A DNA stretch of 64,000 bases from an uncultured Muribaculaceae bacterium (GCA_964630365.1 CAZVUP010000004.1:1970-65969), one strand, 5' to 3'; shown: positions 3,309 through 59,769, counted from the first letter of the stretch. Notes: generated from the sequence alone by a model not told the origin. A program made the numbers and translations.

Positions 3309-5243
3309 CTAATCATATATAGGTTTAGCATTAATTATCTTATATTTAACGCATACATCATTTTTTAATTTATAGACTCTTGAACAAGTATACTTTACTT
3401 CTGGCTCCTTAAAATCATCTTTAAGACATGTTACACCACTTAAAATATAACCATCAGGACAGGTATATAGTTCTAAAGCATCAGTAGTAACCTTACCATG
3501 ACACACACCATCTTTTAATTCCATTTCATCAGTACAAACATACTTCGCATTAGCATCAATAGTTGCCGAATTTGTACATTTATCACCTACTTTTGTATAT
3601 CCATCAGGACAAGTATAATTAGCAGTAGCAGGTACTGATACATTAATATCCTTAACACAATGACCTTGTCCATCAGAAGTTCCAACTAAACAGCTATATG
3701 TTGGTGTCGGTTGATAATAAAGACCACATTTTCCATCAGCATCACTATAACGATAGCCGTTAGGACAAATAGGATTATCATAATGATCATAACTTGGATT
3801 CTGTGTTAAATAACAACCACTATTAGTATAAGAACCGCCTCTAGAACATCCATATGTAGTAACTGCATTAGTAATAGATTGATTTGTTTTTGTACAAACA
3901 GTACCAGACTTCGTATATGAACTATCAGGGCAAGTATAAGACTTAGACGCATCAAAACTATTAATCGTAACACATATTGTTCCCGCAAGAACATAATTAT
4001 CAGGGCAAGTATAAACAACTGGCGCCTCCGCACTAATTTCTTGAATACACTTTTTGCCATCTAATTTAAAGTCATCAGCACACACATATGTTTTTTTAGG
4101 TTTTTTTGACTTTTTATAAACACATAAATCATTAGAGTATATATAATCATCTGGACAATAGAAATTCTCGGTAGCTGCAACTTCCTTCACTATCTTCTGA
4201 CACTTACTGCCATTAAGATCATATCCATCAGGGCACTCATAATGTCCATCAACACAAATACCATATTTATTAATTTTTCCATCTGAACATTTATATTTCA
4301 TCCGCCATAAGAATAATATACAACCAACTAAAACAATTACAAAAACAATCCAAGATAGTATTTTAAAGATATCTTTAAAAGAATATTTTTTACGTATACT
4401 AACAAGGTTATCATATAATTTGCTATTAGCAACAAGACTATCAAAATCTAAAGTATCACTAGATTTTTTTACTTTTCCTTTACTATCAACAATAGGCTGT
4501 TCTTCAATTATATTAATGCTATTTAATGCATCATACATCTTACCAACATCACTATATTGTTCACTAGAATCAATATCTAAAGCTAACATAATAATATTCA
4601 TTAAATCAGCGGATATATTCTCTAGATATGGTACTTTTTGACCAGTTTTTAACATTTCTAAAACTTCATCAGAACTCTTTAAATCAAAAGGAAGCTTACC
4701 AGCTAATAACTGATATAATAAAATACCAACTAGTGAAATATCAGTTTTAGTACTAAATGAATTATTAATACTAGCTAAAGCATCTATTCCACCAAGTTTA
4801 TAAGTAGTACCATCAACATAAATATTATCAACATTTATATTATTATGAATAATATCATTAACATGAAAAGCTGCTAAAGCTAATAAAATATTTTTTCCAA
4901 TTTCAATAATATTTTTTTCTGTATAATGATTACCAGTAAAACTTACTCCAAGGCTTTCTAAATATTCGAATATAATATAGAGTTTTCCCTCTTCAGAATC
5001 ATCAAAAACATCATAATATTTAATTATATATGGATTATTTTGAATTTTGCTAATAGCCTCTACTTCCCGAAATAGTGCGTCACGAACTTCAACATCAGAT
5101 ACACTATAATAATTTATAATTTTTAAATAAGCAGGTATTTTCCCAGTAGAAGTCAAATAATCAATTTTATACAACTCACCATAAGCTATATCTTTAATCT
5201 TCTCAATTATTGAGTATTTATTAATAATATCATTCTTCATCAT
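3309..5243 (-). CDS. Bitopic Ser/Thr-kinase-like protein (predicted pseudokinase) with a Cys-hairpin repeat ectodomain
   Basis: The N-terminal ~240 aa look like a Hanks-type kinase (AYLKII lysine, REVEAISK, DISLVGILLYQLLAGKLPF). The catalytic loop reads HNNINVDN instead of HRDxKxxN, and the DFG position reads GGID. One TM helix (ILSWIVFVIVLVGCILFLW) precedes a 330-aa Cys-rich repeat region. Confidence 0.7.
   Translation of the reverse strand: MMKNDIINKYSIIEKIKDIAYGELYKIDYLTSTGKIPAYLKIINYYSVSDVEVRDALFREVEAISKIQNNPYIIKYYDVFDDSEEGKLYIIFEYLESLGVSFTGNHYTEKNIIEIGKNILLALAAFHVNDIIHNNINVDNIYVDGTTYKLGGIDALASINNSFSTKTDISLVGILLYQLLAGKLPFDLKSSDEVLEMLKTGQKVPYLENISADLMNIIMLALDIDSSEQYSDVGKMYDALNSINIIEEQPIVDSKGKVKKSSDTLDFDSLVANSKLYDNLVSIRKKYSFKDIFKILSWIVFVIVLVGCILFLWRMKYKCSDGKINKYGICVDGHYECPDGYDLNGSKCQKIVKEVAATENFYCPDDYIYSNDLCVYKKSKKPKKTYVCADDFKLDGKKCIQEISAEAPVVYTCPDNYVLAGTICVTINSFDASKSYTCPDSSYTKSGTVCTKTNQSITNAVTTYGCSRGGSYTNSGCYLTQNPSYDHYDNPICPNGYRYSDADGKCGLYYQPTPTYSCLVGTSDGQGHCVKDINVSVPATANYTCPDGYTKVGDKCTNSATIDANAKYVCTDEMELKDGVCHGKVTTDALELYTCPDGYILSGVTCLKDDFKEPEVKYTCSRVYKLKNDVCVKYKIINAKPIYD
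3312..4304 (-). repeat. Coding repeat: 13 copies of a C-x10-12-C hairpin motif, consensus Y-(T/S)-C-P-D-G-Y-x-L-x-G-x-x-C, period ~25 aa
   Basis: Repeats were counted directly in the translation, for example CPDGYDLNGSKC, CPDDYIYSNDLC, CPDNYVLAGTIC, CPDGYTKVGDKC and CPDGYILSGVTC. All 26 Cys residues fall into 13 evenly spaced pairs. Confidence 0.85.
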
Positions 5244-7597
5244 CGTTTCGCCTCAAGTTTCTTTCTTAAAATGAAATAACAAATCAGTATAAGAGCCAAA
5301 GACATTAAACCAATTATTATTGCACTATTATAAAAATGGCTAGCCGTATACTCAAACATTGGATCATATTGACGAATATAACCAGGCACAACCTCCTGAA
5401 TCTTATCAATCAAGCCATTAAAATCATTAGTTGTCCCAAACATTTCTAATGACCATCGACATAATATAAAGGTTGAAATTTTTAAAACAGCACCTTTAAG
5501 TTCAAACAAAAGTCCACAAAACAATGACTGTGGAACTAAAAGCAAAGGCACATATGTCATAGCCATACTTTCATCTCTAGCAAAAGAAGAAACAACTAAA
5601 CCAATAGCTGATGAACCAAATATAGTAAGTGCCATAGTCGCCATCATTTCAATATTCCAATAATAAACAACACCATCACTAGGAGTATCAATAAATAATC
5701 CAAAAACATAAACAAACAATACAGCTTGAATTATAGAAAGAAAAGCAAACACTGTAATTTTAGAAAAAACATAAGAACTAAGCCGTAAATTAGCCATGTG
5801 CTCTTTCTTCAAAATAACTCTTTCCTTACATATTTCTTGAATAGAATTACCAAGACCTAAATATAAACCCGCCAAAGCAATACAAAACATAATTTCTTTA
5901 GTTCTTTCATATATTTCAAAAACTTTATCCGTTAAAATTAAGGACATCATAAAAACAATTATTGGAGATTGAATCAAAAGCAATAATAGTTGCGTTCTAT
6001 TATTAAGAATAGTCTTAATATAACGCTTAGTCAAAGTAAAATATTGACTAATAGCTGATGTATTAGTAATCTCTTTTTGTTTAACTTTTATCAAATGTTC
6101 ACTGTCTTCTAAAGAAGCAACATCTGGTAATATTTGTTCATCTAAATATTTTTGATGCCACTTATCAGGATCATCACCAATTAACAAATAAATATCTATT
6201 AAATCTTTAGTACCAAAGAAAGCATTTGCTTGGTTAGGAAAACCATCATAGCAAATTTTACCACCATCACCAAAGAAAACAACCCTATCACACAAATACA
6301 AATTAAGGGTATTGTGCGTAACTAAAATAACAGTTCTCCCACTATCAGCCATTTTTCGTAATGTAAGCATCATTCTTCTCTCATTTTCAGGATCCAAACC
6401 ACTTGTTGGTTCATCTAAGAAAAACAACCTAGGGTCCGCCAACAATTCAACAGCAATACCTGCTCTTTTTCTTTGTCCTCCAGACAAATTTCTAATAAGT
6501 ACATCTTCTTTACCAACCAAATCAACAATATCAAGAACCTCTTTTATTCTTCTTTCTTTTTCAACAGAAGTAGATTTAAGTGGCATTCTTAAATCAGCAG
6601 AATACTTAAGCATATCAATTAAAGTTAAATTAGTAAAAACAATATCATCCTGGGGAACATAACCTATGTTGTTTTTCAATTGTTCGTAGTTTTTAAACAA
6701 ATCACTTCCATTAATTAGAACTTGTCCTTTAGTAGGCTTATTAAGACCACACATCGAAAGCATTAATGTTGTCTTACCAACACCACTAGCTCCAACAAAA
6801 GCAACAAATTTACCAGGAGAAATAGTCATATTAATATCCTCAGAAATATTAACTTTTCGCCCTTTTATCCTAACTGTATTATAAATACCACGTACATCAA
6901 CACGAACACCCTTTTCAGCAAACTGATAAATTACTTCATCGCGCGAATATATAAGTTTAAGATCTTCAATTTGAATAACATCATTATCATCTAATACAAT
7001 ATTATCTTCAACTAATTTACTATTTACATATACATCTCTACCCATTGAAAATAATATATATCTATCTTTATCTTTTCTAATCTCAATATAATCTTCTACA
7101 TCACTTTTATAAAGCAACATAATATTACAACCACTGCAGTTACCAATTTTCGTAACTGTTCGATGTAAGCGATAATGATTCCACCTATGAATATTATTTC
7201 CAATCTTTACCATAAATAAGATACCATGTTTACTATGATCACTTATATTATCAATACGAATATAATCATTATCATTCAAAGTATACTCACTTATCTTCTG
7301 ATCATTAACAATAAGGCCATTTTTACTATCATTATCATATACTTTTAAAACATTATCCTTTATTACAAAAAAACCATGGAATTTTGAAACAAACAAAGAA
7401 GGAATTACAATGTCATTGGTTTTATCACGACCAAATGTAATTCTTTCTTTATGAAAATCAGATAAGACTATATTAGAAATTTCTCCATTAGCAACAATAG
7501 ATATATTAAAAACAGTATCTAAATAGTCTTTATTAGTAGAAATTTCATAATTATTATTATCATTTGAATTTTGAACATCTAATTTTTCTATATCCAT
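5240..7597 (-). CDS. FHA-domain-containing ABC transporter (fused ATPase and ABC-2/ABCG-type permease)
   Basis: FHA1 reads ITFGRDKTNDIVIPSLFVSKFHG...DSKNGLIVN, and a second degenerate FHA-like segment spans aa ~145-217. ABC motifs are Walker A GASGVGKTT, signature LSGGQRKR and Walker B LFFLDEPTSGLD, followed by a C-terminal multi-TM domain. The gene overlaps the downstream kinase-like gene by 4 nt. Confidence 0.85.
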   Translation of the reverse strand: MDIEKLDVQNSNDNNNYEISTNKDYLDTVFNISIVANGEISNIVLSDFHKERITFGRDKTNDIVIPSLFVSKFHGFFVIKDNVLKVYDNDSKNGLIVNDQKISEYTLNDNDYIRIDNISDHSKHGILFMVKIGNNIHRWNHYRLHRTVTKIGNCSGCNIMLLYKSDVEDYIEIRKDKDRYILFSMGRDVYVNSKLVEDNIVLDDNDVIQIEDLKLIYSRDEVIYQFAEKGVRVDVRGIYNTVRIKGRKVNISEDINMTISPGKFVAFVGASGVGKTTLMLSMCGLNKPTKGQVLINGSDLFKNYEQLKNNIGYVPQDDIVFTNLTLIDMLKYSADLRMPLKSTSVEKERRIKEVLDIVDLVGKEDVLIRNLSGGQRKRAGIAVELLADPRLFFLDEPTSGLDPENERRMMLTLRKMADSGRTVILVTHNTLNLYLCDRVVFFGDGGKICYDGFPNQANAFFGTKDLIDIYLLIGDDPDKWHQKYLDEQILPDVASLEDSEHLIKVKQKEITNTSAISQYFTLTKRYIKTILNNRTQLLLLLIQSPIIVFMMSLILTDKVFEIYERTKEIMFCIALAGLYLGLGNSIQEICKERVILKKEHMANLRLSSYVFSKITVFAFLSIIQAVLFVYVFGLFIDTPSDGVVYYWNIEMMATMALTIFGSSAIGLVVSSFARDESMAMTYVPLLLVPQSLFCGLLFELKGAVLKISTFILCRWSLEMFGTTNDFNGLIDKIQEVVPGYIRQYDPMFEYTASHFYNSAIIIGLMSLALILICYFILRKKLEAKR

Positions 7598-23512: not shown

Positions 23513-24547
23513 TTAATCCAATTTCTTTTGTAATTCTCTAAGTGTCATCAAGAACTCATTAGTTTTCTTAATTTCTTGATCAAGCTTTTCATAATTAGCT
23601 GTATTTTCTAATTCAATATCAGTATCTTTTTCTTTATTCTCAATCCCATATATTGGTGAAATAATAGGACTACTTTTAAATTTATAAGTCTTAGATTCAT
23701 TACTAAGAGGAACTTTAACAGAACTAAAATCTTCAAGCACAACTTTATTTGTAGCAGGTTGCATAACAGTAGGAGCATCTACTGCTTTTACTTCAGCGAC
23801 AACATTATTAGTAACTGGTAAAACATCACTAACATTATCATTTAATTCTACTTCGTTAACAGCATCACTAATCTCAAAATTTTCTGTATAGATAGCACCA
23901 GTTTTTCCCGCTTGACGTGCTAACTCATCCAAACTTATTGGTACAGTATTATCATCAATATACTGTGTCTTTTCATTATTCTCATATAGTTCTTTACTCT
24001 TTTTAACTAACTCTTCCAAACTAATTATAGCACTTTCTTCTTGCAAATCTTCATAATTATTAATTAATTCTGGTTCACTAACTTGTTGTAAGTTTTCATA
24101 ACTATTAATAATCTCCGGTTCCCTAACCTCTTCTACTACAGTATTTTCTTCTTGTGCTTTTTCAAGTTCTTCACGTAGCTTTTGTAACTCGAGTTTAGCC
24201 GTAGCTTGATCTGGCTCAATGGTTGTATATTCTAATTTTTCTTCTATTTGCTCAGGCTCTTTTTCTACTCTTTCAGGAACAACAACTGCATTATCAGCTT
24301 CTGGCTTTACTTCTTCAATAGTCTCTAATACTGGCTCATCAGAATAGTTAACTTCATTTTCTTCTCCAACTTCTTCTTGGATTTGTTCAACTAATTTATT
24401 AAGCTCTCTAGTATTACTACGTCTTTTACGCTTATCTGTATTCTTTTCAACTAAATATATAATGAAACATAGTACACAAGCTAAGCCTATAACTATATAT
24501 ACAACCATAATTTCTTCAGAAGTTAAAAAATTGATTAATTCATTCAT
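23513..24547 (-). CDS. Bitopic membrane protein with a large Glu-rich cytoplasmic domain (function unknown)
   Basis: The protein has an N-terminal TM helix followed by KRKRR and is highly acidic. It contains a tandem 14-aa repeat, EPEIINSYENLQQ / EPELINNYEDLQE (24038-24124), and a conserved-looking C-terminal SPIISPIYGI motif. Confidence 0.55.
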   Translation of the reverse strand: MNELINFLTSEEIMVVYIVIGLACVLCFIIYLVEKNTDKRKRRSNTRELNKLVEQIQEEVGEENEVNYSDEPVLETIEEVKPEADNAVVVPERVEKEPEQIEEKLEYTTIEPDQATAKLELQKLREELEKAQEENTVVEEVREPEIINSYENLQQVSEPELINNYEDLQEESAIISLEELVKKSKELYENNEKTQYIDDNTVPISLDELARQAGKTGAIYTENFEISDAVNEVELNDNVSDVLPVTNNVVAEVKAVDAPTVMQPATNKVVLEDFSSVKVPLSNESKTYKFKSSPIISPIYGIENKEKDTDIELENTANYEKLDQEIKKTNEFLMTLRELQKKLD

Positions 24548-24749: not shown

Positions 24750-26039
24750 ATGAAAGAAAAATTTATTAAATCTACTATAATTCTCTTAATTGGCGGATTT
24801 CTAACAAAAATTCTCGGAATGCTTATAAAAATTATCATGGCCCGAATTATCGGTACCAAAACATTAGGAACTTATATGTTAATTCTACCAACATTTTCTC
24901 TTTTAATCAGCCTTAGTCAATTTGGTCTTCCAATAGCCCTTTCTAAACTAATTTCAGAAGAAACAAGAAACAATAAAAATCTTTTCTTTACTCTCTTACC
25001 ACTCTTAGTAGCAATTAATATCTTACTATCTATCTTAATAGTAATAACGGCCCCAATAATTAGTACAAGACTATTACACAATGATAATACCTATCTAGCA
25101 ATTTTAGCCATGTCCCTAGTTATACCTTTCACATCAACATCGAGTATCTGTAGAAGCTATTTTTTTGGCAAATCAAGAATGTTCCCCCATGTTCTATCAA
25201 ACATCATTGAAGACATAACTAGACTTTTATTATTAATTACAACTCTACCAAAAATTATTCTTTATGGAACAAAATACGCTGTAGCTTATCTAGTCTTAAT
25301 AAACATAATTAGTGAAATAGCATCAACAATAGTTTTAATCTTCTTTCTACCAAAAAATATAAAAATAACTAAAAAAGACTTTATACCAAATAAAAACTAT
25401 CTAAAAGATAGCCTAAAAATAAGTATTCCTAATACCAGTACTAGACTAATAGGAAGTATTGGTTATTTTCTAGAACCAATTATAATATCAACCATTCTCT
25501 TAAAAGTGGGTTATACAACTAACTATATAACTACTGAATATGGTATCATTTCTGGTTATGTAATACCCTTAATATTATTACCATCATTCTTTACACTAGC
25601 CATATCTCAAGCACTACTTCCCATAATATCAAAAGAATATACTAAAGGAAATAAAATATATGTAAAAAGAAAAATAATTCAAGCTATTGTCTTATCTTTA
25701 CTTATAGGTATCCCCGTAACTATTATTTTAGTCTTAAAACCAGCCTATTTTCTAAATTTAATCTACCATACAAACGAAGGTACAACATACATAAAAATAC
25801 TTGCTCCAATATGTATATTTCAGTATATTCAAGCACCGCTTGCAAGTTCTTTAGATGCTATGGCTAAAAGTAAAGATGCCTTTCTAGCAACCCTCTATGG
25901 CACAATAATTAGAACAACTACACTCTATCTAACATCATATTTAAAAATAGGATTCTATTCACTAATCATCGCCACTAGCCTAAATATATTAGTAGTAACA
26001 TTCTATGAAATAAAAAAAGTAAGAAAATATCTTACTTAG
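24750..26039 (+). CDS. MOP-superfamily polysaccharide/lipid-II flippase (SpoVB/MurJ-like)
   Basis: The 429-aa polytopic protein has the N-terminus FIKSTIILLIGGFLTKILGMLIKIIMARIIGTKTLGTY, typical of the SpoVB/MurJ family. Confidence 0.75.
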   Translation: MKEKFIKSTIILLIGGFLTKILGMLIKIIMARIIGTKTLGTYMLILPTFSLLISLSQFGLPIALSKLISEETRNNKNLFFTLLPLLVAINILLSILIVITAPIISTRLLHNDNTYLAILAMSLVIPFTSTSSICRSYFFGKSRMFPHVLSNIIEDITRLLLLITTLPKIILYGTKYAVAYLVLINIISEIASTIVLIFFLPKNIKITKKDFIPNKNYLKDSLKISIPNTSTRLIGSIGYFLEPIIISTILLKVGYTTNYITTEYGIISGYVIPLILLPSFFTLAISQALLPIISKEYTKGNKIYVKRKIIQAIVLSLLIGIPVTIILVLKPAYFLNLIYHTNEGTTYIKILAPICIFQYIQAPLASSLDAMAKSKDAFLATLYGTIIRTTTLYLTSYLKIGFYSLIIATSLNILVVTFYEIKKVRKYLT

Positions 26040-26961
26040 TTTTAACTATTTCTTTGTCATCTTCCATACCTCTATAATATTCTAATCTTTGTAACTCCAT
26101 ATAATAAGCATCAACTAAATCTTTTAATGTAGGAGTTATATGATATGTTTGTCCTCCTGGTAATCTTGTTATAGAAATATGAGTAAAATCCACTAAGAAC
26201 CTACTTATCAAAGAACAAGCATCAGAATAAAGCTGATCATCAACAAATATAGTTCTAAAAGGAGTTGAACCTTCAGTTTTTTCAAAAAAACCTTTAATTT
26301 TAGAATGTAAAATAATATTAATATGTTCATTAAGAAGTAAATCTTCATCATAATTTCCTGGATCTATTTTTGAAATATTATCTTCTATTATTGTAGGAAT
26401 AAATGATTTAATAAATTGATCATAATAGAAATCACCATATAATTTATCAGAATATATTTGATCTATATGCTGTAATGTTTTTTCAAAATCCGTATCACTT
26501 TGATCTCCATAGCCACATCTTCTATAATCAAACATATAATAAAGATCTAATATTTTTTTTAAAGTTGTATTTATAGTCACTTCATAAATTCTAGAATTTT
26601 CATCTTTAGACCAACAAGAAACTTTCAAATGATCTCGAAGAATATAAATAAGTATATCAAAAGCTATATCAAAATAGTTTTCTTGAATATAAAATGTATT
26701 TTCACCAGAGATAAAAAGGCCAGGTCCATGATAAGGTTGTATTTTTATCTTTTCATCAATAATTGTTTTGTCTTTAACATCATAAGGACTCCAATGTTTA
26801 CTATCTATAGAAAAGGTATCAAAATGATCATCTAAAGACACATTTATAAATATTGGTAAAAACTCTCTCATAAATCCCATTATAATATCTGTTATAGCGT
26901 CACTTTCTACATCTTGAGAATAACTTTTCATATCTTCTATTTTTTCATAAAAATTAGCCAT
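26032..26961 (-). CDS. Paralog 4 of a tandem four-gene family (two-module cytoplasmic protein, unknown function)
   Basis: The protein starts MANFYEK, follows an AAGGAG RBS, and ends YYMELQRLEYYRGMEDDK. The N- and C-halves align with each other. Confidence 0.75.
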   Translation of the reverse strand: MANFYEKIEDMKSYSQDVESDAITDIIMGFMREFLPIFINVSLDDHFDTFSIDSKHWSPYDVKDKTIIDEKIKIQPYHGPGLFISGENTFYIQENYFDIAFDILIYILRDHLKVSCWSKDENSRIYEVTINTTLKKILDLYYMFDYRRCGYGDQSDTDFEKTLQHIDQIYSDKLYGDFYYDQFIKSFIPTIIEDNISKIDPGNYDEDLLLNEHINIILHSKIKGFFEKTEGSTPFRTIFVDDQLYSDACSLISRFLVDFTHISITRLPGGQTYHITPTLKDLVDAYYMELQRLEYYRGMEDDKEIVKTK

Positions 26962-26975
26962 ATAAATTCTCCTTA

Positions 26976-27908
26976 TTACTTTTTAACCGCAACTTTTTCT
27001 TTGTCATCTTCCAAAGCCCGATAATGTTCTAATCTTTGTAATTCCATAAAATATGTTTTAATCATCTCACGTAAATATTCTTTATATTTAAAACTTACTC
27101 CGTAAGACCGACCACCATTAAAACAACATTCTGGAGATAAATAATCTTTAATAAGATTTATAAATTCAGAATAAAATTGATCATCAACAAAAATACTTTT
27201 TTCCCAACAAATTACACTATCATCTTCCATAACATCAGGAAGTTTTGAATTTTTAAAAACAGAAACTACCCCAGAATTAATTATATCTCTCTCATAATTA
27301 CTAGGGGTAATTTGAGAAATTCCTTGATTAATAACAAGCGGCATAATTTTACCAATGAACTCATCATAGAATAAATCACCATATAACTTTTCAGAATAAA
27401 TTTGTTCCAAATATTTAAGCTTTTTCTCAAAGTCAGTATAAACATTTATATCAGCTTCACCATATCTTCTAGGATCATATGAATAATACAGCCTTAAAAG
27501 ATTATTTAAACTTGTACTAAAAGTAATAATAATGTCATTATCACTATTTCTATTCCATTCATATGAATAGTCCAACTCAGAACGAATAATATTTCTTAGT
27601 TTATCAGCAAAAAATTCTAAATAATCTTCTCTAACAATAAAATCTTTATTATCAAACATAACTAAGCTAGAATCATACACCGCTTGAAAAGGGCGGATAG
27701 TTATTGTCCTCTTTTCTTCTAATTCTCTTATTGATTCTGGCTTTAAATCAGCGCTTAAACTATTTATATTATCTAATGATTCATTAATCCAATATGGTAA
27801 AACCAAATGCATAAATTCTAATATCATATCAGCAATAATATCGCTTTCTACATCTATAGAATAATTTTTAACATCATTTACTTTTTCATAAAAATTAGCA
27901 ATCTCCAT
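26976..27908 (-). CDS. Paralog 3 of the tandem family
   Basis: The protein starts MEIANFYEK and ends YFMELQRLEHYRALEDDK. It shares YSYDPRRYG and IYSEKLYGDLFYDEFI with its neighbours. Confidence 0.75.
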   Translation of the reverse strand: MEIANFYEKVNDVKNYSIDVESDIIADMILEFMHLVLPYWINESLDNINSLSADLKPESIRELEEKRTITIRPFQAVYDSSLVMFDNKDFIVREDYLEFFADKLRNIIRSELDYSYEWNRNSDNDIIITFSTSLNNLLRLYYSYDPRRYGEADINVYTDFEKKLKYLEQIYSEKLYGDLFYDEFIGKIMPLVINQGISQITPSNYERDIINSGVVSVFKNSKLPDVMEDDSVICWEKSIFVDDQFYSEFINLIKDYLSPECCFNGGRSYGVSFKYKEYLREMIKTYFMELQRLEHYRALEDDKEKVAVKK

Positions 27909-27921
27909 AGTAATACCTCTC

Positions 27922-28845
27922 TTATTTCTTTACCTTTTCTTTTGCTTTATCGTCTTCTATACCTCTATAATATTCTAATCTTCGTAATTCCATATAATAT
28001 TCTTTTACTAAATCATCCAGAGTAATATTAAATCTAAAAACATATCCTTTTAATGCTGCAGAATATCCAACAACATCCCCCCATAAATCATCCTCAAAAC
28101 GTTTTTTAAGCATAGTAATAAACTCATCATAAACAGCATCATCAACTACAAAATAAAATATATCTTTTTCTTGCTTTTTTATTAATTCAGATGAATCATA
28201 TACCGATTTTTCTACTACAACAAATTTTTCAGAGACAATATGTGTATGCATATAATTATGAGGTTGAATTCTTGATATATTACTTTCTATAATACTAGGT
28301 AATAATTTACCAATAAACTTATCATAATATGTATCACCATACAATTTATCATCATAAATATTACCTAACCAATTTAATTTTTCTTCAAAATCTCTTGGAG
28401 CAACATCTTCTCCTCCATATCTTCTAGGATCATATAAGTAATATAAATTCGTAATCTTACTTAAAGATGTTCCCATTTTAATTACACTCTCATTTTTATA
28501 TTTATGAATATCACAATTCATAACAATACCATTAAGAGATTCTATAATATTTAAAAAAGTTTTATAGTAAGCTTCATTTACAAAAATACTTGTCCCAATA
28601 ACTTCCGCCGCTTTTTTATCAGAAGATGAAATTACTCTAATAGTTTCAACAAACGTATCATCTGCAATATCATCAAAAGATAACTTAGAACTTTTAGCTT
28701 TTATTTTATCTATTTGCTTATTAATAACATTTCCTAAAAGTTCTTGCATAAACATCATTAAAATATCAGTTACTACATCAGCTTCTATATCTCGAGATAA
28801 ATCTTTTGCTTCTTCTATTTTTCTAAAAAAGTTTTTCTTTTCCAT
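27922..28845 (-). CDS. Paralog 2 of the tandem family
   Basis: The start is set at MEKKNFFRK (the ATG after AGGTGG, which overlaps the paralog-1 stop). The protein ends YYMELRRLEYYRGIEDDK. Confidence 0.75.
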   Translation of the reverse strand: MEKKNFFRKIEEAKDLSRDIEADVVTDILMMFMQELLGNVINKQIDKIKAKSSKLSFDDIADDTFVETIRVISSSDKKAAEVIGTSIFVNEAYYKTFLNIIESLNGIVMNCDIHKYKNESVIKMGTSLSKITNLYYLYDPRRYGGEDVAPRDFEEKLNWLGNIYDDKLYGDTYYDKFIGKLLPSIIESNISRIQPHNYMHTHIVSEKFVVVEKSVYDSSELIKKQEKDIFYFVVDDAVYDEFITMLKKRFEDDLWGDVVGYSAALKGYVFRFNITLDDLVKEYYMELRRLEYYRGIEDDKAKEKVKK

Positions 28846-28857
28846 AAAATACACCAC

Positions 28858-29745
28858 CTATTTCTTAACCTTTTCTTTAGGCTGATCATTTCTCATACCT
28901 TGATAGTATTCAAGTCTTTGTAATTCCATATAATATGCATTGACTAAATCCATAAAAGAACAATCAAATGCAATTTTTGATCCATCTTTAGAAAAAGAAT
29001 TACCAAGATCATAATCTTCCATAAATTGCATTATTTTTTCTCTGACCTTATCAACATATAAAGGATTAACTACAATACTATAAGGATCATCTAAAACTTC
29101 CAAAGCCACACCATAACCGCCAATGATATTACAATCAAAATTAAATTCTGGAACTTCAGAAAGATTAGCTAAATCAGTATTTTCAATTGCCTCATCAATA
29201 GTACCATAAACATATCCTGAAAGAAATTCTTGATAATAAAAATCTGTTGCCAAATCTTCACAATAAGCATTTATTTTACGTAGATTTGGTTCAAATTCTT
29301 TATCAACTATTTCTCCATCTCCCCAACGTCTTTCATCATTATGATAAAACACTTCTAATAGTCTCCATAAAGGAGCAAAAATATGGATAGAGTCTTCCTG
29401 AACTACAAATCCTAATTCATCATCAAAATAATTGGCAAGATAATCCCTAAGAGCATTATAAATCTCTGTACTAGGTATAAAAAGTTTTCCACTATTAGGA
29501 TCTATTTTTCTAAAAACAACTTTTTTCTGGCCTAAATAAAATTCAGTATTTTCGAGTTTTAATACATATTTTGTTTTTGCACCAAAAGAATACATTTTAA
29601 AATCATTTGATATTATTACCGAATTAATAATAGCAGGTAAAACTTTTCCTACAAACACGCTATAAAAATTTCCTACTACTTCTTCACTATATATATCTCC
29701 AAGCCACTCCTTAGTATTCTTATTTTTTTCATAAAAATTTTTCAT
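28858..29745 (-). CDS. Paralog 1 of the tandem family (most divergent)
   Basis: The protein starts MKNFYEK after a GGAGG RBS, ends YYMELQRLEYYQGMRNDQ, and contains FYHNDERRWG in place of YYxYDPRRYG. Confidence 0.75.
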   Translation of the reverse strand: MKNFYEKNKNTKEWLGDIYSEEVVGNFYSVFVGKVLPAIINSVIISNDFKMYSFGAKTKYVLKLENTEFYLGQKKVVFRKIDPNSGKLFIPSTEIYNALRDYLANYFDDELGFVVQEDSIHIFAPLWRLLEVFYHNDERRWGDGEIVDKEFEPNLRKINAYCEDLATDFYYQEFLSGYVYGTIDEAIENTDLANLSEVPEFNFDCNIIGGYGVALEVLDDPYSIVVNPLYVDKVREKIMQFMEDYDLGNSFSKDGSKIAFDCSFMDLVNAYYMELQRLEYYQGMRNDQPKEKVKK

Positions 29746-29769: not shown

Positions 29770-29798
29770 ATACTAACACAATTATTTTCTAAAGACAA
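29770..29798 (-). promoter_or_regulatory. Promoter-like element for the four-paralog operon
   Basis: The minus strand reads TTGTCT (29793-29798), a 17-nt spacer, then TAGTAT (29770-29775) preceded by TGT, an extended -10. A weak hairpin with a T7 run lies just upstream. Confidence 0.4.
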
Positions 29799-29831
29799 GA
29801 AAAAAAGAAAGCTAAGCCTTCTAAAATATAA

Positions 29832-30956
29832 CTAATTAATAGTTGGAAAATCAACAAACGGATTATTAGCATCATAAACATTTTGAACAATCTGTGTCCC
29901 AGCAGCATCATATGTTGTCGCTACAATTGTATCTCCTACTCTCTCATAAGAAGTTTGAGTATAAAGATTTCCGTTATTATCATAGCGAAATTCATGCCCA
30001 TTTGCTTGTCTATCATTCAGTAAAACTCCATTCTCATAATATTGAGAAGACCCATCAGATCCACTAACATTCGTGTAAGTAGTTGAGCCATCAGAATTTG
30101 TCCTATAATCATATTTAAATTCTACACCATTTTCATCAACATGAAGTTTTACCCTTCCATCAGAATCATATTGTTTATATGACCCATCGGCATTCTTTTC
30201 TTCAAAAACAGTACCATTACTATATTTAGTATACGACCCATCAGCCTTTGCTTCATATTCCAATGCTTGACTCCCATCTTTATCGCGTTTAATGATTTTT
30301 TCTGCCCCGTCAGCAGCATAATAATGTTCTTCAGTTTTGCCAGAAAAAATATCAAAATCATAAGTTGTTTCATTTCCATTACTATCTTTAGAATAAATAA
30401 GTCCTCTATTATTTGAAATTCTATAGTTGCCATCAGAATCTATAACTAGTTTAACATCCGGATTATCAATATCCTTATAATTTAAATGCGGAAGATCTGC
30501 TGAACGAGTAATTCCATCATCTCTACCAATCCAATTAGTACACAAAGATCGTATAGCCTCTCCATACAATTCAACGCTACCATCTGGCTTAATAATTTTA
30601 AAAACTTCACCATCTTTATCATAATACTTGATAGTTCCATCATCTAATAATTCTTTTTTCTTATACTCGAGAGTAATACCATCAGTAGATATAGTAGTCT
30701 CCCTTTCCATTCCCATACGTCCCAAATCAAATCGTTCCGTATCTCTAGAAGGATCACCAATCAAAGTTAGAGCCTTTGGTACAGAACTAGCGGCACTAGA
30801 AACAGCATCTAAATCAACTGTTTCAATTTCAGCTTCTTTTTCAGCAAATTTTTGTGCTACTAAATCTTTTTTAGGAATAACTCCTCTATCATTAGGATTT
30901 TCATGTTTATATTCCAAATCATAAGTTTTAACATTATTTACAAGCATCTTTATCAC
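29832..30956 (-). CDS. Cytoplasmic YD/MORN-like beta-hairpin repeat protein
   Basis: More than 15 short D/N-G-x4-6-Y repeats are present, for example KQYDSDGRVKLHVDENGVEFKYDY, SQYYENGVLLNDRQANGHEFRYDNNGNLY and YYDKDGEVFKIIKPDGSVELY. No signal peptide, TM helix or recognisable enzymatic domain was seen. Confidence 0.6.
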   Translation of the reverse strand: MIKMLVNNVKTYDLEYKHENPNDRGVIPKKDLVAQKFAEKEAEIETVDLDAVSSAASSVPKALTLIGDPSRDTERFDLGRMGMERETTISTDGITLEYKKKELLDDGTIKYYDKDGEVFKIIKPDGSVELYGEAIRSLCTNWIGRDDGITRSADLPHLNYKDIDNPDVKLVIDSDGNYRISNNRGLIYSKDSNGNETTYDFDIFSGKTEEHYYAADGAEKIIKRDKDGSQALEYEAKADGSYTKYSNGTVFEEKNADGSYKQYDSDGRVKLHVDENGVEFKYDYRTNSDGSTTYTNVSGSDGSSQYYENGVLLNDRQANGHEFRYDNNGNLYTQTSYERVGDTIVATTYDAAGTQIVQNVYDANNPFVDFPTIN

Positions 30957-45273: not shown

Positions 45274-46293
45274 CTATTTTTTATTTACTTTTTCTATTCC
45301 TAAAACTTCATAAGCTTTATCTGTAACAACTCTTCCGCGAGCTGTTCTTTTTAATAATCCCATTTGTAAAAGATAGGGTTCATAAACATCTTCAATTGTT
45401 GTTACTTCTTCACCTATTGTACTACTTATAGCTTCAATTCCAACAGGCCCACCATTAAATTTATTAATAATAGAAAGTAATAATTCTCTATCGGTATTAT
45501 CAAGACCCATTTTATCAACTTTTAATCTATTTAGTGCATCTTCAGTTATTTTAAGATTTATTCTTCCATCACCTTTAACCATGGCAAAGTCACGTACTCT
45601 TTTAAACAATCTATTAGCAATTCTTGGAGTACCTCTACTTCTTTTAGCAAGTTCAACAGCCGCCTCATCATCAATTTCAACATTTAAAACTCGAGCTGTT
45701 CTCTTAACTATATCAGTCAGTTCTTCTACAGTATAAAATTGTAGTTTATTAATTATTCCAAATCTATCTCTTAAAGGTGCTGATAAGTCCCCAGCTCTAG
45801 TTGTTGCTCCAACTAAAGTAAATGGTGGTAAATCTATCTTTATATTCCGACTATTTCCTTCACTACCGACAATAATATCTAAGGAAAAGTCTTCCATTGC
45901 GGGATAAAGAATTTCTTCAATATATCTAGGCATTCTATGAATCTCATCAATAAATAAGACATCACCCGGTTCCAATGAAGAAAGTATCGCTGCTAAATCA
46001 CCACTCTTTTCAATACTAGGTCCACTTGCTGTTTTAATATTAGTACCTAACTCATGCGCAATTATAAAAGCAAGAGTTGTCTTTCCAAGCCCAGGAGGGC
46101 CATATAATAAAACGTGATCAAGCGACTCATTTCGCATTTTAGCAGCTTCAACAAAAACCTTAATGTTTTCTTTAACATCAGTCTGCCCAATATACTCTTC
46201 TATTGACTCCGGTCTAATTGTATTATCAATTGTATTATCATCAAATAATTCATAGTTTCTTATAACATTTTCATTATTCATAACTGCCTCCAT
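45274..46293 (-). CDS. ruvB: Holliday junction branch migration helicase RuvB
   Basis: Motifs include [20 protein letters not shown] and GTPRIANRL. Confidence 0.95.
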
Positions 46294-46943: not shown

Positions 46944-46967
46944 CAAAAAAGATGATTAAATCATCTT
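46944..46967 (-). terminator. Rho-independent terminator
   Basis: AAGATGAT (46949-46956) pairs with ATCATCTT (46960-46967), and T6 follows on the minus strand. The stop codon lies inside the hairpin. Confidence 0.55.
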
Positions 46968-47752
46968 AAATATCTTTGTATTGAATCATCTGCTATATTT
47001 AAAGATTTTACTAATCTTTTACAATCATCTTTTTCAATAGCATCAATCCTATAACTATCTCCATAATCAGAAAGACATAAAAACTCATCTGCCACATGCG
47101 AATATAATAATGTATAAAGATTATAATCGCTATCCATAGCTTCACAATCTGAAAATGGATAATTAATACCTAACAATAACCATCTAACAAAATATATTGC
47201 ATCAGAATATTGTCTATTACAAGGACTATCACCAAGCATCCTACTTAAATCATTTACCAATTTATCAAAATCTTTAATATCAGTAAAGTGACTATAATCA
47301 GCACGTGTCCTATATTGATAACCAAGTCTTGTATCAACTTCTAATAATTTTTCTCTATAATATGCATCTGTAGAAGTAAAACCTTTTGTTTCTAGACTAA
47401 GTTTTACTCGTGTTAGATCACTATATGCTGCATCTAATCTCCATATAATACCATCCCTATCTTTATAAGTTAAATAACTATGATTAGGACTATAATTATT
47501 ACTAACTTCAGCATCAGTAAATTCCTTAATTAATTTTAATAATACATACTTACAATATGTATGACAAATTACTAAATAATCATCAACCTTAGTAAGATCT
47601 ATTCTTTTATTAAATTCTTCTCCGGCAGTAAATTTATACCTACTATCAAAAGAAAACAATTTACAGGTTTCTAAATAGATATAGCGAACTTTTTCAAAAT
47701 CAGTTAAATCTTTTTCTCCAATATCTCTACCAATCTGATTAATTATATCCAT
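46961..47752 (-). CDS. Divergent transglutaminase-like (papain-fold) protein
   Basis: FEKVRYIYLETCKLFSFD is followed by LVICHTYCKYV (candidate Cys) and NHSYLTYKDRDGIIWRLDAAY (candidate His and Asp), in parallel with the upstream gene. The start is set at MDII (47752), but 47758 is also possible. Confidence 0.45.
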   Translation of the reverse strand: MDIINQIGRDIGEKDLTDFEKVRYIYLETCKLFSFDSRYKFTAGEEFNKRIDLTKVDDYLVICHTYCKYVLLKLIKEFTDAEVSNNYSPNHSYLTYKDRDGIIWRLDAAYSDLTRVKLSLETKGFTSTDAYYREKLLEVDTRLGYQYRTRADYSHFTDIKDFDKLVNDLSRMLGDSPCNRQYSDAIYFVRWLLLGINYPFSDCEAMDSDYNLYTLLYSHVADEFLCLSDYGDSYRIDAIEKDDCKRLVKSLNIADDSIQRYLR

Positions 47753-48782
47753 AATCATCTCTCCTTGGTAATGGTGGTGGTGTTTTAACATATTGCTTTG
47801 GTCTATCTGTACTAAGTAGTGGCGGAGGGCAAGGTTTAGCCATCATCCTAGCCTCAATATAAAAATTATAATCATCATGATGCTTAATAACATGTTTTCT
47901 TTTTATTATTTCATTTTCATCTACCCCATTTAGATTTTTAAAAGACAAATCATAATAACTAACACCATTAATATCTCTTAATTCGTTCCATACATGATAT
48001 TTGTTTTTATCAGGGGTACTCGCTAAAAGAATACCTTGAGTTAAAAAGCAAGGACACTTTAAATAATAATTGTTTAAAATAACTTTTAATAAGCCTGATC
48101 TTCCAGCACATACTCCAGTTTTTCTTTTAAAAGTCATTATTGGATCTTGACTATATTCACACCCTGGTTTTAAACCTGTATCAGTTGTTGCAGCTAATTC
48201 AAATCCTATGTTTTTTAAACACCAATCATAAGCAAAATTCATTTTTTCTTGTGCATTTAAATTTCTCAAATGAGGATATTTATCATAAAAATCCCTAGCA
48301 ATTTTTCGCATTTCTATTACTCTATTTCTAGCTTTTGGAGTAAGTTTACTAAGTAACACTCTATAATCAACATCATTTAGTCGCAAAGCCCACCAATCAA
48401 AATCATTAGCCTCACAATATTCAAACTCTCTAGCCTCTGTCCAGTTATCAAATAAATTAGTAATTTTAACATTATCTGGTAAATTTTTATAATTTAATTT
48501 AACACAAGAGCCAAACTTCATATTAAATCTATTTAAAGACAAAATAATTATTCTATTTGTTCTAATATCTGCCAAAGAATCAAAAAGAGCATTAAAGCTT
48601 GCAACATCATTTGCACTAGCTTTAACATTTATTATAACTTTTCTAACATAATAAGGTAATGAATTAATATTATCAATCAGTGTATCAGTAATTTCACTAG
48701 AAATATCTCCCGAAATTATTAGCGTCATATTATCAAGCAATTTATATTTTAAACCACACTGATCATTCCAATTTATCTGCAT
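47739..48782 (-). CDS. Transglutaminase-like cysteine-protease-fold protein with a Pro-rich tail
   Basis: The core motifs are KTGVCAGRSGLL (Cys) and KYHVWNELRDINGVSYYDLS (His and Asp). The C-terminal tail reads PCPPPLLSTDRPKQYVKTPPPLPRRDDYGYN. The start is set at MQINWND after GGGGGAG. Confidence 0.6.
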   Translation of the reverse strand: MQINWNDQCGLKYKLLDNMTLIISGDISSEITDTLIDNINSLPYYVRKVIINVKASANDVASFNALFDSLADIRTNRIIILSLNRFNMKFGSCVKLNYKNLPDNVKITNLFDNWTEAREFEYCEANDFDWWALRLNDVDYRVLLSKLTPKARNRVIEMRKIARDFYDKYPHLRNLNAQEKMNFAYDWCLKNIGFELAATTDTGLKPGCEYSQDPIMTFKRKTGVCAGRSGLLKVILNNYYLKCPCFLTQGILLASTPDKNKYHVWNELRDINGVSYYDLSFKNLNGVDENEIIKRKHVIKHHDDYNFYIEARMMAKPCPPPLLSTDRPKQYVKTPPPLPRRDDYGYN

Positions 48783-48810
48783 AATATACTCCCCCTTTTT
48801 TACTTCACAT

Positions 48811-48839
48811 ATTATATCACAAATAAATAAATAAAGCAA
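48811..48839 (-). promoter_or_regulatory. Sigma-A-type promoter with extended -10
   Basis: The minus strand reads TTGCTT (48834-48839), a 17-nt spacer, then TGaTATAAT (-10 at 48811-48816). Confidence 0.55.
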
Positions 48840-48840
48840 A

Positions 48841-48869
48841 AAAAAACGTAATTACTAATTGTAATTACG
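48841..48869 (-). terminator. Rho-independent terminator
   Basis: A 9-bp stem pairs CGTAATTAC (48847-48855) with GTAATTACG (48861-48869), and T8 follows on the minus strand. The stop codon is embedded in the hairpin. Confidence 0.65.
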
Positions 48870-49590
48870 CCTCAAAATTACCGGTTGCTTTTAAATTTTT
48901 AGATAAATCATAATAATTTCCATCACTTCTTTTAGCAATAATTGTTTGGCCCCAACCAGCACCTTCTTTAATACCTGAACTTGCAGATAATATACTTACT
49001 ACATCTTCTACACCTTCAAGTGTTCCATAAGAATTAAATCTTTGATTTTCATCTTGTGGTGGATATTTTACATCCTTATACAATGGAGTATATTGAACAG
49101 TACCATCTTCCATTAAATATAAAATAACCTCATAGCCTGCTGCTTGTCCAAAACCTCCAACAAATGCTTGTGCGATTTTTTTATCAAAAGTTTTTGTAAC
49201 TCTTGAACGAGTGCCATCAGTAGCCCCTCCGCACTCTCCACCATATATTGAGCATAACTTAACATTATCATATTCAATAATAGCTGTCTTCAAATCATCT
49301 TTAACACTAACAGATAAATTTATTGCTGAAAAATATGCCTCAAGATGATATACTACATTTTCATCACCATTCAAACAATCCTTCAAACCATACTCCACAG
49401 TATTCATAACAGTTTGGTCATTAACTTCACTCTTATCACTACTAGCTTTTGTAGTAACAACTTCTCCATCACTAAATATCTTATCTTTATTAACAAAGAT
49501 AAAACCACCAAGTCCACAACATATTAGTAATAATAAAACTACTAAGAAAACCAAACCACCATTACCTTTTTTCTTTTCTTTTCCTTCCAT
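48865..49590 (-). CDS. Membrane-anchored extracytoplasmic hypothetical protein
   Basis: An N-terminal basic stretch and TM helix (GGLVFLVVLLLLICCGLGGFIF) precede a ~200-aa domain with 4 Cys. No family was recognised. Confidence 0.5.
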   Translation of the reverse strand: MEGKEKKKGNGGLVFLVVLLLLICCGLGGFIFVNKDKIFSDGEVVTTKASSDKSEVNDQTVMNTVEYGLKDCLNGDENVVYHLEAYFSAINLSVSVKDDLKTAIIEYDNVKLCSIYGGECGGATDGTRSRVTKTFDKKIAQAFVGGFGQAAGYEVILYLMEDGTVQYTPLYKDVKYPPQDENQRFNSYGTLEGVEDVVSILSASSGIKEGAGWGQTIIAKRSDGNYYDLSKNLKATGNFEA

Positions 49591-49679
49591 TTTTTCACCT
49601 CAAAATAATTATATCGCACACAAATAAAAAATGTTATGTTTATAAGAATAATAATTTGTCAATTGACAAAAAAAGAAAG

Positions 49680-50228
49680 TTATTTAACTTTCTTCATCAA
49701 TCTCTTTAAATAATTCTTTGCTTGAGTAATTCTAACTTCCAAACTACTCTTAAGTCTAGGAAACACCGCTGGTATAATAAATACTACTAACCATAAACAA
49801 TCAAAGTAATTCCCCACTAACAAAGCATGAATTCCTAATATAACAACTGCAACTGCAAAAAGCAAAAGACAAACAACAACAATTAAATTAGAAATATTTT
49901 TAAAGTTACTTAAGTTTTCAAAATCAATTTCTTTCTTAGAAAGTAATTTATCTGCTCTTTCTGTAAAACGCCTATATCTAGCATTAAAATCTTCAGAATT
50001 CTCTATTTTAACACTTGACTCATATAAGTCTCCACGATACAAAAATTTCCCATCAGGTAAAACACTAACATCAACATTAGCATAATTATCAATCTTAAAG
50101 TTAATATTAAATTCTTCAGAAAGTATTTTAATAACTTTATTTCGACATTTATTTGAAATAAAACCTGATTCATTCATATAGACTTTTAATTCATTGTTAA
50201 TTCTATTTAATCTTTCTTGTTCAATCAT
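49680..50228 (-). CDS. Hypothetical protein with two C-terminal TM helices
   Basis: This is a 182-aa ORF with a soluble N-terminal half and two hydrophobic helices near the C-terminus. Confidence 0.5.
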   Translation of the reverse strand: MIEQERLNRINNELKVYMNESGFISNKCRNKVIKILSEEFNINFKIDNYANVDVSVLPDGKFLYRGDLYESSVKIENSEDFNARYRRFTERADKLLSKKEIDFENLSNFKNISNLIVVVCLLLFAVAVVILGIHALLVGNYFDCLWLVVFIIPAVFPRLKSSLEVRITQAKNYLKRLMKKVK

Positions 50229-56543: not shown

Positions 56544-56547
56544 ATTT

Positions 56548-57213
56548 TTACCCCCTATTATTATAAATAATTGGATAAGGATTTCCAAACTCCTCCATAG
56601 TTTTTACCATCAACTTACCCATTCCTTTTCTCTCGACTAACTCCTCAGCTGCACAAATAACTCCATGTGCCCATTCATCAGCATCTTCATAAAAATCAAA
56701 ACCTTCACCATGAGGTCCACCATCGCCTAAGGCCACCATAAAATCAATTTTCTCAGCAATTGCTCTATCAATTACTAATTCTGCTGCCTCCTCTGGCATT
56801 AATCCAATTAAAAGATTACAGTCAGCAAGTGAACTACTTTTAGTAAACTTTTCTCTGACAAGCTTTAAACTCATAGTATCTTCTTCGTATATACTTAGTC
56901 GTGGATCATAAACAACTAATCTACCAGTATCTAATTCAGCTTCAATTCTTTTCGCTAAACATGGAATAACTCCTCCACCTACTTCAACAATTCTTCTACC
57001 ATTAAGAGTAAAATTATCTTTAAGTAATTGAAAAAAGCCATCATAAATATTTAAATTACTTGGTAAAATTTCTAATTGATCATAAACTTCTCTAACATCC
57101 GCTGGTATAAATTGTTCAGTAATTACATAATCCAAAATAAGTTTCTTTTCATAATCTGTAAAAAGTTTTGGATACTGATCTAAATATTTACGTATTTGTT
57201 GCTGATAATCCAT
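56548..57213 (-). CDS. Rossmann-like protein (possibly UPF0146-like / methyltransferase fold)
   Basis: RRIVEVGGGVIPCLAKRI is a glycine-rich loop after a beta-strand. It is followed by LVVYDPR and CNLLIGLMPEEAAELVIDRAIAEKIDFMV. The start is set at MDYQQQ after AGGTGA. Confidence 0.4.
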   Translation of the reverse strand: MDYQQQIRKYLDQYPKLFTDYEKKLILDYVITEQFIPADVREVYDQLEILPSNLNIYDGFFQLLKDNFTLNGRRIVEVGGGVIPCLAKRIEAELDTGRLVVYDPRLSIYEEDTMSLKLVREKFTKSSSLADCNLLIGLMPEEAAELVIDRAIAEKIDFMVALGDGGPHGEGFDFYEDADEWAHGVICAAEELVERKGMGKLMVKTMEEFGNPYPIIYNNRG

Positions 57214-57254
57214 ATTAATCACCTATAAACAATATTAGAAAATATCATAGCACA

Positions 57255-59757: not shown

Positions 59758-59769
59758 ATATATCACCAC

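Follow-up and report, generated by a model that had tools for sequence, protein, structure and literature searches.

The DNA analysed here, hereafter the window, is a stretch of 64,000 nucleotides from an uncultured Muribaculaceae bacterium (GCA_964630365.1, CAZVUP010000004.1:1970-65969), and it harbours four tandem genes on its minus strand (26032-29745), designated P1 to P4 in the order of transcription. Their products fall outside every family tested and form a new protein family, the newness being claimed for the protein family only. The building block of this family is an alpha/beta module of approximately 150 amino acids, the final helix of which bears a conserved motif.

Gene array and putative expression signals

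P1 (28858-29745, minus strand) encodes 295 amino acids, with an N-terminal module (N-module) at approximately 29745-29290 and a C-terminal module (C-module) at approximately 29289-28861; it carries the C-terminal motif NAYYMELQRLEYYQG and a tail ending in KEKVKK, and it matches the profile hidden Markov model (HMM) of the family with an E value of 1e-62. P2 (27922-28845, minus strand) encodes 307 amino acids when translated from the ATG at 28845, its N-module extending to approximately 28402 and its C-module running from approximately 28401 to 27925, with the motif KEYYMELRRLEYYRG. A GTG at 28857 offers an alternative start that would lengthen P2 to 311 amino acids; the ATG is favoured by metagenome gene callers and by the family N-terminus MEKKNFF, and leaves a gap of 12 nucleotides. 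P3 (26976-27908, minus strand; 310 amino acids) comprises an N-module at approximately 27908-27447 and a C-module at approximately 27446-26979, with the motif KTYFMELQRLEHYRA, and P4 (26032-26961, minus strand; 309 amino acids) an N-module at approximately 26961-26503 and a C-module at approximately 26502-26035, with the motif DAYYMELQRLEYYRG. With P2 taken from the ATG, the intergenic gaps amount to 12-14 nucleotides, and every gene is preceded by its own Shine-Dalgarno sequence, being GGAGG (29756-29752) for P1, GGTGGTG (within the 12-nucleotide gap between P1 and P2) for P2, GAGAGG for P3, and AAGGAG for P4. The array is located downstream of helD and a repeat-protein gene and converges on a Polysacc_synt/SpoVB-like flippase gene (24750-26039, plus strand), with which the 3' end of P4 overlaps by 8 nucleotides. 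The four open reading frames (ORFs), their Shine-Dalgarno sequences and this overlap, as described in a first-pass annotation of the window, were confirmed from sequence and coordinates.

Upstream of P1, a sigma-A-type promoter-like element, TTGTCT-17-TAGTAT, in which TGT immediately precedes the -10 hexamer, can be read from the sequence at 29770-29798 (minus strand), in agreement with the earlier prediction that the array has its own promoter-like element. Between the repeat-protein gene and the array lies a terminator-like hairpin, AGAAGGCTTAGCTTTCT followed by a T-run (29799-29822, minus strand), which separates that gene from the array; it was matched in the terminator scan, and its predicted RNA fold is weak (-6.1 kcal/mol, z -0.9). 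At the distal end, a second terminator-like hairpin, AAGUAAGA/UCUUACUU (26010-26037, minus strand), includes the stop codon of P4 and is followed by a U-run. The predicted fold of this element has -8.7 kcal/mol (z -2.3), and it is AT-rich, so that it was missed by the consensus scan; it is the likely 3' end of a four-gene transcription unit. Upstream of relatives of these genes, elements of the same kind were found at the loci numbered L014 (TTGACT-17-TATAAT), L019 (TTGCTT-17-TATAAT) and L012 (TTGTCT-17-TATAAT), TGn-extended -10 elements at L008 and L017, and the promoter-like elements of relatives often lie downstream of a terminator hairpin. From these signals we infer that the array forms one transcription unit, served by a putative promoter of the sigma-A type and bounded by terminator-like hairpins, with a strong Shine-Dalgarno sequence before every gene, and that its transcription would be independent, of the sigma-A type and probably vegetative.

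Module architecture and history of the family

The four genes are tandem paralogs, since all six pairs among P1 to P4 align over their full length at 25-38% identity (BLASTP, E 2e-19 to 1e-68), which is far beyond chance and upholds the first-pass assignment. BLASTP self-comparison did not detect an internal repeat and profile comparison was needed; alignment of the N-half and C-half profiles by hhalign gave 91.7% (E 7.7e-7, 135 columns) for the four paralogs alone and 99.5% (E 3e-22, 136 columns) for 31 family members, the reversed-sequence control of the latter comparison having an E value of 0.13. As had been proposed, each protein thus consists of two homologous halves of approximately 150 amino acids, amounting to eight modules in the array, and hhalign paired exactly the segments that the first-pass annotation had matched. 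Moreover, each module HMM recognised all modules of the other half, with 23-34 bits for N-modules scored against the C-module HMM and 40-56 bits in the opposite comparison, of C-modules with the N-module HMM. Both halves end in AYYMELQR or AYYMEMQR in the relatives P0011, P0016, P0019 and P0020, and the halves of P0029 end in AYYGERQR and AYYAELQR.

The module is encoded in one of two ways, by single-module genes that lie next to each other in pairs or by a gene in which two modules are fused. Adjacent pairs of single-module genes, encoding 169-180 amino acids, occur in two rabbit-derived metagenome-assembled genomes (MAGs) labelled 'uncultured Bacilli' (L012, L013), and the working unit is therefore probably a pair of modules: a dimer in which the fused proteins would be asymmetric pseudo-dimers. 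Both gene forms stand side by side at L020, where the two-module gene of P0029 is followed by an intact single-module gene of 203 amino acids (4924-5559), and at L019, in the same rabbit MAG as one of the single-module pairs, where a two-module gene adjoins a single-module gene (5150-5785) that is frameshifted into two pieces and represents either a pseudogene or an assembly error. An additional variant is P0024 (444 amino acids, from a Logan contig), in which approximately 150 extra residues after the motif YYMEKQRIEYY could be a third, degenerate module. Judged by the module HMM scores, N-modules are closer to one another than to C-modules, and the window proteins form one clade, (P1,(P2,(P3,P4))), that matches the gene order; therefore, the module duplication is old and the four-gene array is recent. 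The array is a lineage-specific serial tandem expansion, and the internal duplication predates the tandem gene duplications.

Across the family alignment of 31 sequences, which have 16-38% identity to P4, Y286 and E289 (P4 numbering) are invariant, and at least 90% of the sequences retain M1, N3, F183, I192, L282, Y287, Q291 and R292. Conservation peaks in the last helix, LxxLIDAYYME(K/L)QR(I/L)EY, which precedes a tail of 8-15 residues that often ends in Lys or Arg. The nearly invariant C-terminus that had been noted for the four window proteins is indeed present, and it is a family-wide feature rather than one peculiar to these genes. Conservation also extends to the N-terminus, ME-N-[LF]-Y throughout the family, and to the long first helices of the N-module (F..FLP.II...I) and the C-module (FE.EFLD..IV.II). 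In the window paralogs, the N-module counterpart of the last-helix motif has decayed to LYYxYDxRRxG.

An AlphaFold2 model of P4, based on the 31-sequence alignment, had a mean predicted local distance difference test score (pLDDT) of 80.7 and a predicted template modelling score (pTM) of 0.50, so that the modules are confidently predicted and the packing of the two modules is uncertain. By DSSP assignment, both halves of the model begin with a long helix, continue with three strands and a second helix, and close with a beta-hairpin and a last helix, and the first sheet of the C-module model is interrupted by a short helix. The window proteins have an acidic pI of 4.6-5.2 and a net charge of -9 to -23 and are rich in Tyr (7-8%); nearly all family members are likewise acidic (pI 4.6-5.4), and the Tyr content across the family is 5-11%, in part because the genome is AT-rich. 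No convincing transmembrane segment was found, the highest 19-residue Kyte-Doolittle mean being just 1.2-1.8, in the conserved helix alpha1, which agrees with the earlier statement that transmembrane helices are absent. We infer that the products are soluble acidic cytoplasmic proteins that are probably expressed during growth.

Comparison with known families and folds

The four paralogs had no match in Pfam, NCBIfam or PADLOC, and PHROGs yielded just matches at E>=0.0017, to different families for each paralog. No recurring family emerged when all 31 members were compared with Pfam, and neither the module consensus sequences nor the single-module proteins matched a Pfam entry. The comparison with SUKH/SMI1-KNR4 and other Imm families that the first-pass annotation had put forward was performed as a Pfam profile scan and gave no significant match: none of the 31 members matched SUKH/SMI1 at E<=1, nor did the two module consensus sequences or six further members at the looser threshold of E<=10, and the lone Imm match, of Imm40 to one of the 31 members (E 0.024; cutoff 25 bits), was judged to be noise. 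Sequence queries of PDB, whether by one protein or by the profile, returned noise only, and a literature search on the motif strings returned nothing relevant.

Structure comparison led to the same outcome. Foldseek searches with the whole-chain model of pLDDT 81 reached best E values of 0.045 in PDB and 0.011 in BFVD, so that no match fell below 0.01, a weaker model of pLDDT 67 gave a best, non-significant E value of 0.021 against PDB, and all TM scores were below 0.25. SUKH and Imm folds were absent among the 50 PDB matches listed for the whole-chain query (pTM 0.50). No characterised family was thus matched by sequence or, with the whole-chain models, by predicted structure, which supports its original description as unassigned.

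The searches bear directly on the possibility of an enzyme or a small-ligand-binding protein of new fold, in which the last helix would supply the active or binding site through its invariant residues Y, Y, E, Q and R. Such a role would account for why the invariant residues, polar and aromatic, cluster in a single helix of an otherwise drifting protein, and the N-module copy of the motif retains YY..D.RR.G in the window paralogs. However, no enzyme family was matched in Pfam, NCBIfam or the PDB sequence searches, in keeping with the first-pass remark that no catalytic motif could be named; four co-expressed, highly diverged paralogs would be unusual for a housekeeping enzyme, and the family has no conserved metabolic neighbourhood. 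A catalytic or ligand-binding role is accordingly rated as very unlikely.

The recurring non-significant Foldseek matches are tandem-domain proteins, including I-DmoI, KH1-KH2 pairs and tandem shell proteins of bacterial microcompartments, and many of the top-ranking ones are nucleic-acid binders (I-DmoI, KH1-KH2, SarS). This raises the possibility of a nucleic-acid-binding pseudo-dimer, in which two alpha-beta-beta-alpha-beta-beta-alpha-like modules would form a saddle of the kind known from single-chain LAGLIDADG/WhiA proteins or tandem KH domains, and the basic tail would touch DNA or RNA. Single-chain LAGLIDADG proteins and WhiA share with the family a length of approximately 300 amino acids, two homologous alpha/beta domains, long N-terminal helices and the occurrence of paired and fused forms; the order of secondary-structure elements resembles that of a LAGLIDADG domain, many members carry a Lys-rich C-terminal tail, and the family gene physically adjoins whiA in four lineages. 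On the other hand, the matches in question have E>=0.045 and TM scores of at most 0.24 and are not significant, those to I-DmoI having E values of 0.07-0.7 and TM scores below 0.2. No LAGLIDADG, KH or helix-turn-helix profile was matched, the LAGLIDADG motif is absent, the conserved motif of the family is located in the last helix and not in the first, and the strongly acidic character of the proteins (net charge -9 to -23) is unfavourable for binding of nucleic acids. Kinship with the neighbouring WhiA was rejected, as hhalign comparison of the family, or of either module, with four WhiA sequences gave probabilities of 0.1-0.2%. Among the functions weighed here, nucleic-acid binding has the slimmest chance.

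A further likeness concerns the class I chaperones of type III secretion systems (T3SS), which are small, acidic homodimers with five strands, three helices and a C-terminal amphipathic helix (PMC2816692). Like CesT, SrcA and SicP, the module is of approximately 15-17 kDa, acidic and predicted to have the order alpha-beta3-alpha-beta2-alpha with an amphipathic C-terminal helix, and the modules appear to pair into a dimeric unit. The likeness is confined to secondary-structure order; no sequence match was found, the dimer of the family is covalently fused and asymmetric, and injectisome genes are absent from the window and from the related loci. CesT-, SicP- and SycE-type chaperones were absent among the 50 PDB Foldseek matches listed (best E 0.045), and the resemblance is therefore to be regarded as a lead rather than as a claim of membership.

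Distribution, genomic context and proposed role

The family is rare: when 1.84 billion representative proteins were searched exhaustively with HMMER, 36 matched at E<=1e-3, four of which are the window's own, and the family clusters are tiny (1-15 members, none named). A word-indexed protein search recovered P3 alone when P3 was the query, and just P0004 and P0026 when the 31-sequence profile was used. In GTDB, a pattern scan derived from the four paralogs alone found nothing, so that the representative genomes appear not to include the source species; the 31-sequence alignment was too diverse for a search pattern and a narrower alignment was used. Six loci were found among the GTDB species representatives, four of them in rumen RUG MAGs labelled 'uncultured Erysipelotrichaceae' and two in rabbit MAGs labelled 'uncultured Bacilli', and a pattern scan of JGI metagenomes gave five loci. 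Every family locus has a G+C content of 24-28%, and all placeable relatives are from very low-GC uncultured Erysipelotrichaceae/Bacilli MAGs, including rumen- and rabbit-derived assemblies. Members of the family were absent from IMG/VR and GenBank phages, and a phage origin was rejected after a tblastn search against 50,697 phage records and the search of IMG/VR had returned none.

Seven metagenome samples have yielded contigs that match the window itself at 99.9-100% identity, and the labels of one set of these suggest a survey of the ruminant gut. All of these contigs, which may represent one strain, have four copies without differences in gene order or content, and their near-identity precluded strain-level analysis of nonsynonymous to synonymous substitution ratios (dN/dS). 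Codon comparison within the motif was uninformative, with strong AT codon bias. Between lineages, the copy number varies from 1 to 4, as exemplified by 1 versus 2 copies at the glyQS-whiA slot.

Elsewhere in genomes and metagenomes, 13 loci contain one or two copies on the same strand as their neighbours, and the identifiable neighbours are mostly housekeeping genes. The commonest slot is glyQS-X-whiA, which is occupied in four lineages by one copy (L014, glyQS-[1]-whiA-<clpP; L024, glyQS-[1]-whiA), by two copies (L009, glyQS-[2]-whiA-<clpP), or by at least two copies (L008 and L011, glyQS-[at least 2]...whiA). Other arrangements are mgl-Sm_multidrug_ex-[1]-(DUF4190)-ileS (L010, L017), pgk-[2 single-module genes]-spo0A-gpmI (L012, L013), and metG-tatD-[two-module]-[single-module] (L019, L020). 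The neighbours at L027 are a GT2 glycosyltransferase gene and an RNase III-like gene, those at L025 are unannotated ORFs and DUF4230 genes, and L023 and L026 contain two tandem copies on contigs that are too short to reveal neighbours; helD is a further neighbour that was identified among the family contexts. In three contexts, the family genes lie at most two genes from an aminoacyl-tRNA synthetase gene, being glyQS (L014), ileS (L010/L017) or metG (L019), a proximity that may reflect chance or placement among highly expressed core genes.

The position directly upstream of spo0A at L012 and L013, together with the presence of spo0A, gerA-type receptor genes or SpoVB-like genes near loci in the carrying lineages, relates to the idea that the family comprises sporulation-linked, self-assembling structural proteins of a coat- or crust-like nature, in which the modules would contact one another. 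Coat proteins typically diverge rapidly, keep conserved termini and occur as tandem paralogs, and this family is likewise fast-evolving, lineage-specific, rich in paralogs and rich in Tyr (5-11%). Nevertheless, adjacency to sporulation genes is sporadic, the Tyr content derives partly from the AT-rich genome, and the promoters upstream of relatives look like sigma-A types (L014, L019) and not like the sigma-E or sigma-K type, the window lacking an AC-17-CATA element. A structural role in sporulation is therefore considered improbable.

Within the window, the nearest upstream neighbour of the array is the repeat protein (29832-30956, minus strand; 371-374 amino acids), a cytoplasmic protein with YD/MORN-variant-like repeats that is probably outside the array unit. 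Its Pfam matches, to MORN_2 (E 2.9e-5) and RHS_repeat (E 3.9e-4), are below the cutoff, and it is a near-orphan of which a MORN_2 protein, P0003, is the single distant relative. On the other side, the flippase gene (24750-26039) is one of just two large plus-strand genes in the window; its product is of the Polysacc_synt/MatE type, its best NCBIfam match is SpoVB (274.6 bits versus a cutoff of 372), and metagenome gene callers take a shorter start that gives 387 amino acids. Beyond it (23513-24547, minus strand), a protein of 344 amino acids is encoded that has one N-terminal transmembrane helix and a long, acidic, Glu-rich low-complexity region, and that matches no family. Both the repeat protein and this membrane protein were rejected as family-wide partners, as neither is present at any other family locus.

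The first-pass annotation had suggested that the array resembles a polyimmunity island. On such a reading, the paralogs would be immunity proteins that neutralise the polymorphic toxins of competitors, and two-domain 'polyimmunity proteins' would make up a homogeneous locus. Polyimmunity loci have been described as same-strand tandem arrays of distantly related small-domain proteins, sometimes with several domains per polypeptide (Zhang et al. 2012, PMC3482391). The window array agrees with SUKH/Imm polyimmunity loci in being a tandem, same-strand and likely polycistronic array, apparently one expression unit, of distantly related (25-38% identity), acidic, cytoplasmic proteins built of small alpha+beta domains, and both the occurrence of two domains per polypeptide and the lineage copy number of 1-4 fit that description. 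Furthermore, the array is downstream of a repeat protein whose similarity to MORN_2 and RHS-repeat families is weak. The immunity gene arrays of the EsaG/DUF600 (YezG-like) type, which are located at T7SS (type VII secretion system) loci of Firmicutes and encode many diverged cytoplasmic paralogs of approximately 160 amino acids, are similar in presenting tandem diverged cytoplasmic paralogs in low-GC Gram-positive bacteria.

The context of the relatives, however, differs from that of immunity loci. No LXG, RHS, WXG100, T7SS or other toxin gene and no recombinase gene adjoins the family at any of the 13 loci, some of whose neighbours are unannotated and two of which lie on contigs too short to reveal neighbours. 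The annotated genes of the 64-kb window likewise include no toxin, T7SS, LXG, RHS or recombinase gene, although several of its ORFs lack a Pfam match and could encode a novel toxin; within the window and these loci, the LXG, RHS and WXG100 families for which a search had been proposed were thus absent. Members of the family match neither SUKH nor Imm profiles in Pfam (the Imm40 match being noise), no member matches the Pfam profile of the EsaG/DUF600 family at E<=1, and EsaD-like nuclease genes are absent near the loci. The glyQS-X-whiA slot is kept in four lineages, no difference in copy number or content was seen among the contigs from seven samples, which may all be of one strain, and the low copy number (1-2) among housekeeping genes at the 13 loci largely corresponds to the core-gene synteny that the first-pass annotation itself had named as an argument against an immunity island. 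As to the placement after a repeat-rich protein, which it had read as a hint of immunity, a terminator-like hairpin lies between the two and the repeat protein is specific to the window. Taken together, these observations do not support the immunity-island idea, which is weakened rather than disproved, and an immunity function is regarded as unlikely.

The window as a whole looks like a long co-oriented chromosomal stretch, in which nearly all genes are on the minus strand and the GC skew is negative throughout positions 1-64000 (-0.17 to -0.41), and which is probably leading-strand sequence presented as its reverse complement. Its other annotated genes are housekeeping genes, including recD2, an mtaB-like gene, mutS, nusB, glmM, ruvAB, tgt, queA, obg and pilCD; an L21 leader is located at 61981-62050, and no tRNA genes were found in the window. 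Several further ORFs on the minus strand are unassigned, including an abutting tandem pair of 399 amino acids each (58570-59769 and 59770-60969; 30% identity, E 8e-50), the first of which was scanned and had no Pfam match at E<=1e-5, and a pair of 675 and 754 amino acids (52267-54294 and 54324-56588; 24% identity, E 9e-27) without Pfam match, adjoined by an ORF of 224 amino acids (56548-57222) that also lacks one. Four ORFs of 276, 366, 241 and 182 amino acids (46961-50228, minus strand), situated between ruvA and a yebC-like gene, have no Pfam match at E<=1e-5. The ORF at 46961-47791 and the ruvB gene (45274-46293) are not recorded as exact products, which may reflect differences in start codons.

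The reading that is tentatively preferred, as a possibility short of an even chance, is that the family consists of abundant, acidic, non-enzymatic, pseudo-dimeric binding proteins that act in an adaptor- or chaperone-like manner. A binding role is favoured because a catalytic signature is lacking, the proteins are acidic, and fast-evolving sheets and loops are set against one invariant helix. In such a mechanism, the decay of the N-module motif would leave a single helix face, close to the C-terminus, on which the aromatic and polar residues (Y, Y, E, Q, R) are fully conserved, and this invariant helix would dock onto a partner retained throughout the clade. Sheets and loops, which evolve fast and differ between paralogs, would provide a second specificity that diversifies, and the paralogs would be chromosomal, vertically inherited components rather than members of a mobile conflict island.

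Several observations weigh against this binding-protein proposal. No gene co-occurs with the family across contexts and no partner emerged, adjacency to whiA and glyQS being found at just 4 of the 13 loci, and the invariant Y-Y-E-Q-R cluster would be just as compatible with a site of catalysis or ligand binding. Foldseek retrieved no chaperone, immunity protein or other fold at E<0.01, and the proposal therefore rests on the absent catalytic signatures, the charge and the architecture. Moreover, the promoter and terminator calls are consensus matches in DNA of 28% G+C, in which matches of this kind are frequent, 57 having been found versus 43 expected. Finally, many other ORFs of the window also lack a Pfam match; the lineage therefore appears to evolve fast, which makes 'no match' weaker evidence here, and the absence of a family match may partly reflect such fast sequence evolution.

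A bolder and rather doubtful proposal is that the module represents a new fold and that the family is a clade-specific family of dimeric or pseudo-dimeric cytoplasmic binding proteins, either a new immunity family against unrecognised toxins or a new chaperone or adaptor family, which would dock through the YYMExQRxEY helix and would have been expanded in tandem in herbivore-gut Erysipelotrichaceae. The expected impact of the finding is moderate, as metagenomes, including those with uncultured gut Firmicutes, abound in orphan families, and further pairs of unassigned tandem paralogs are present in this genome itself. If the family is as it appears, it would provide a well-defined new domain with one very strongly conserved helix in poorly known uncultured Erysipelotrichaceae/Bacilli, and it would illustrate a path from a single-module gene pair, via a fused pseudo-dimer, to a tandem array. 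The family thereby presents a target for structure and interaction work, which might uncover a novel module for binding or chaperone functions, or else a novel family of immunity proteins.

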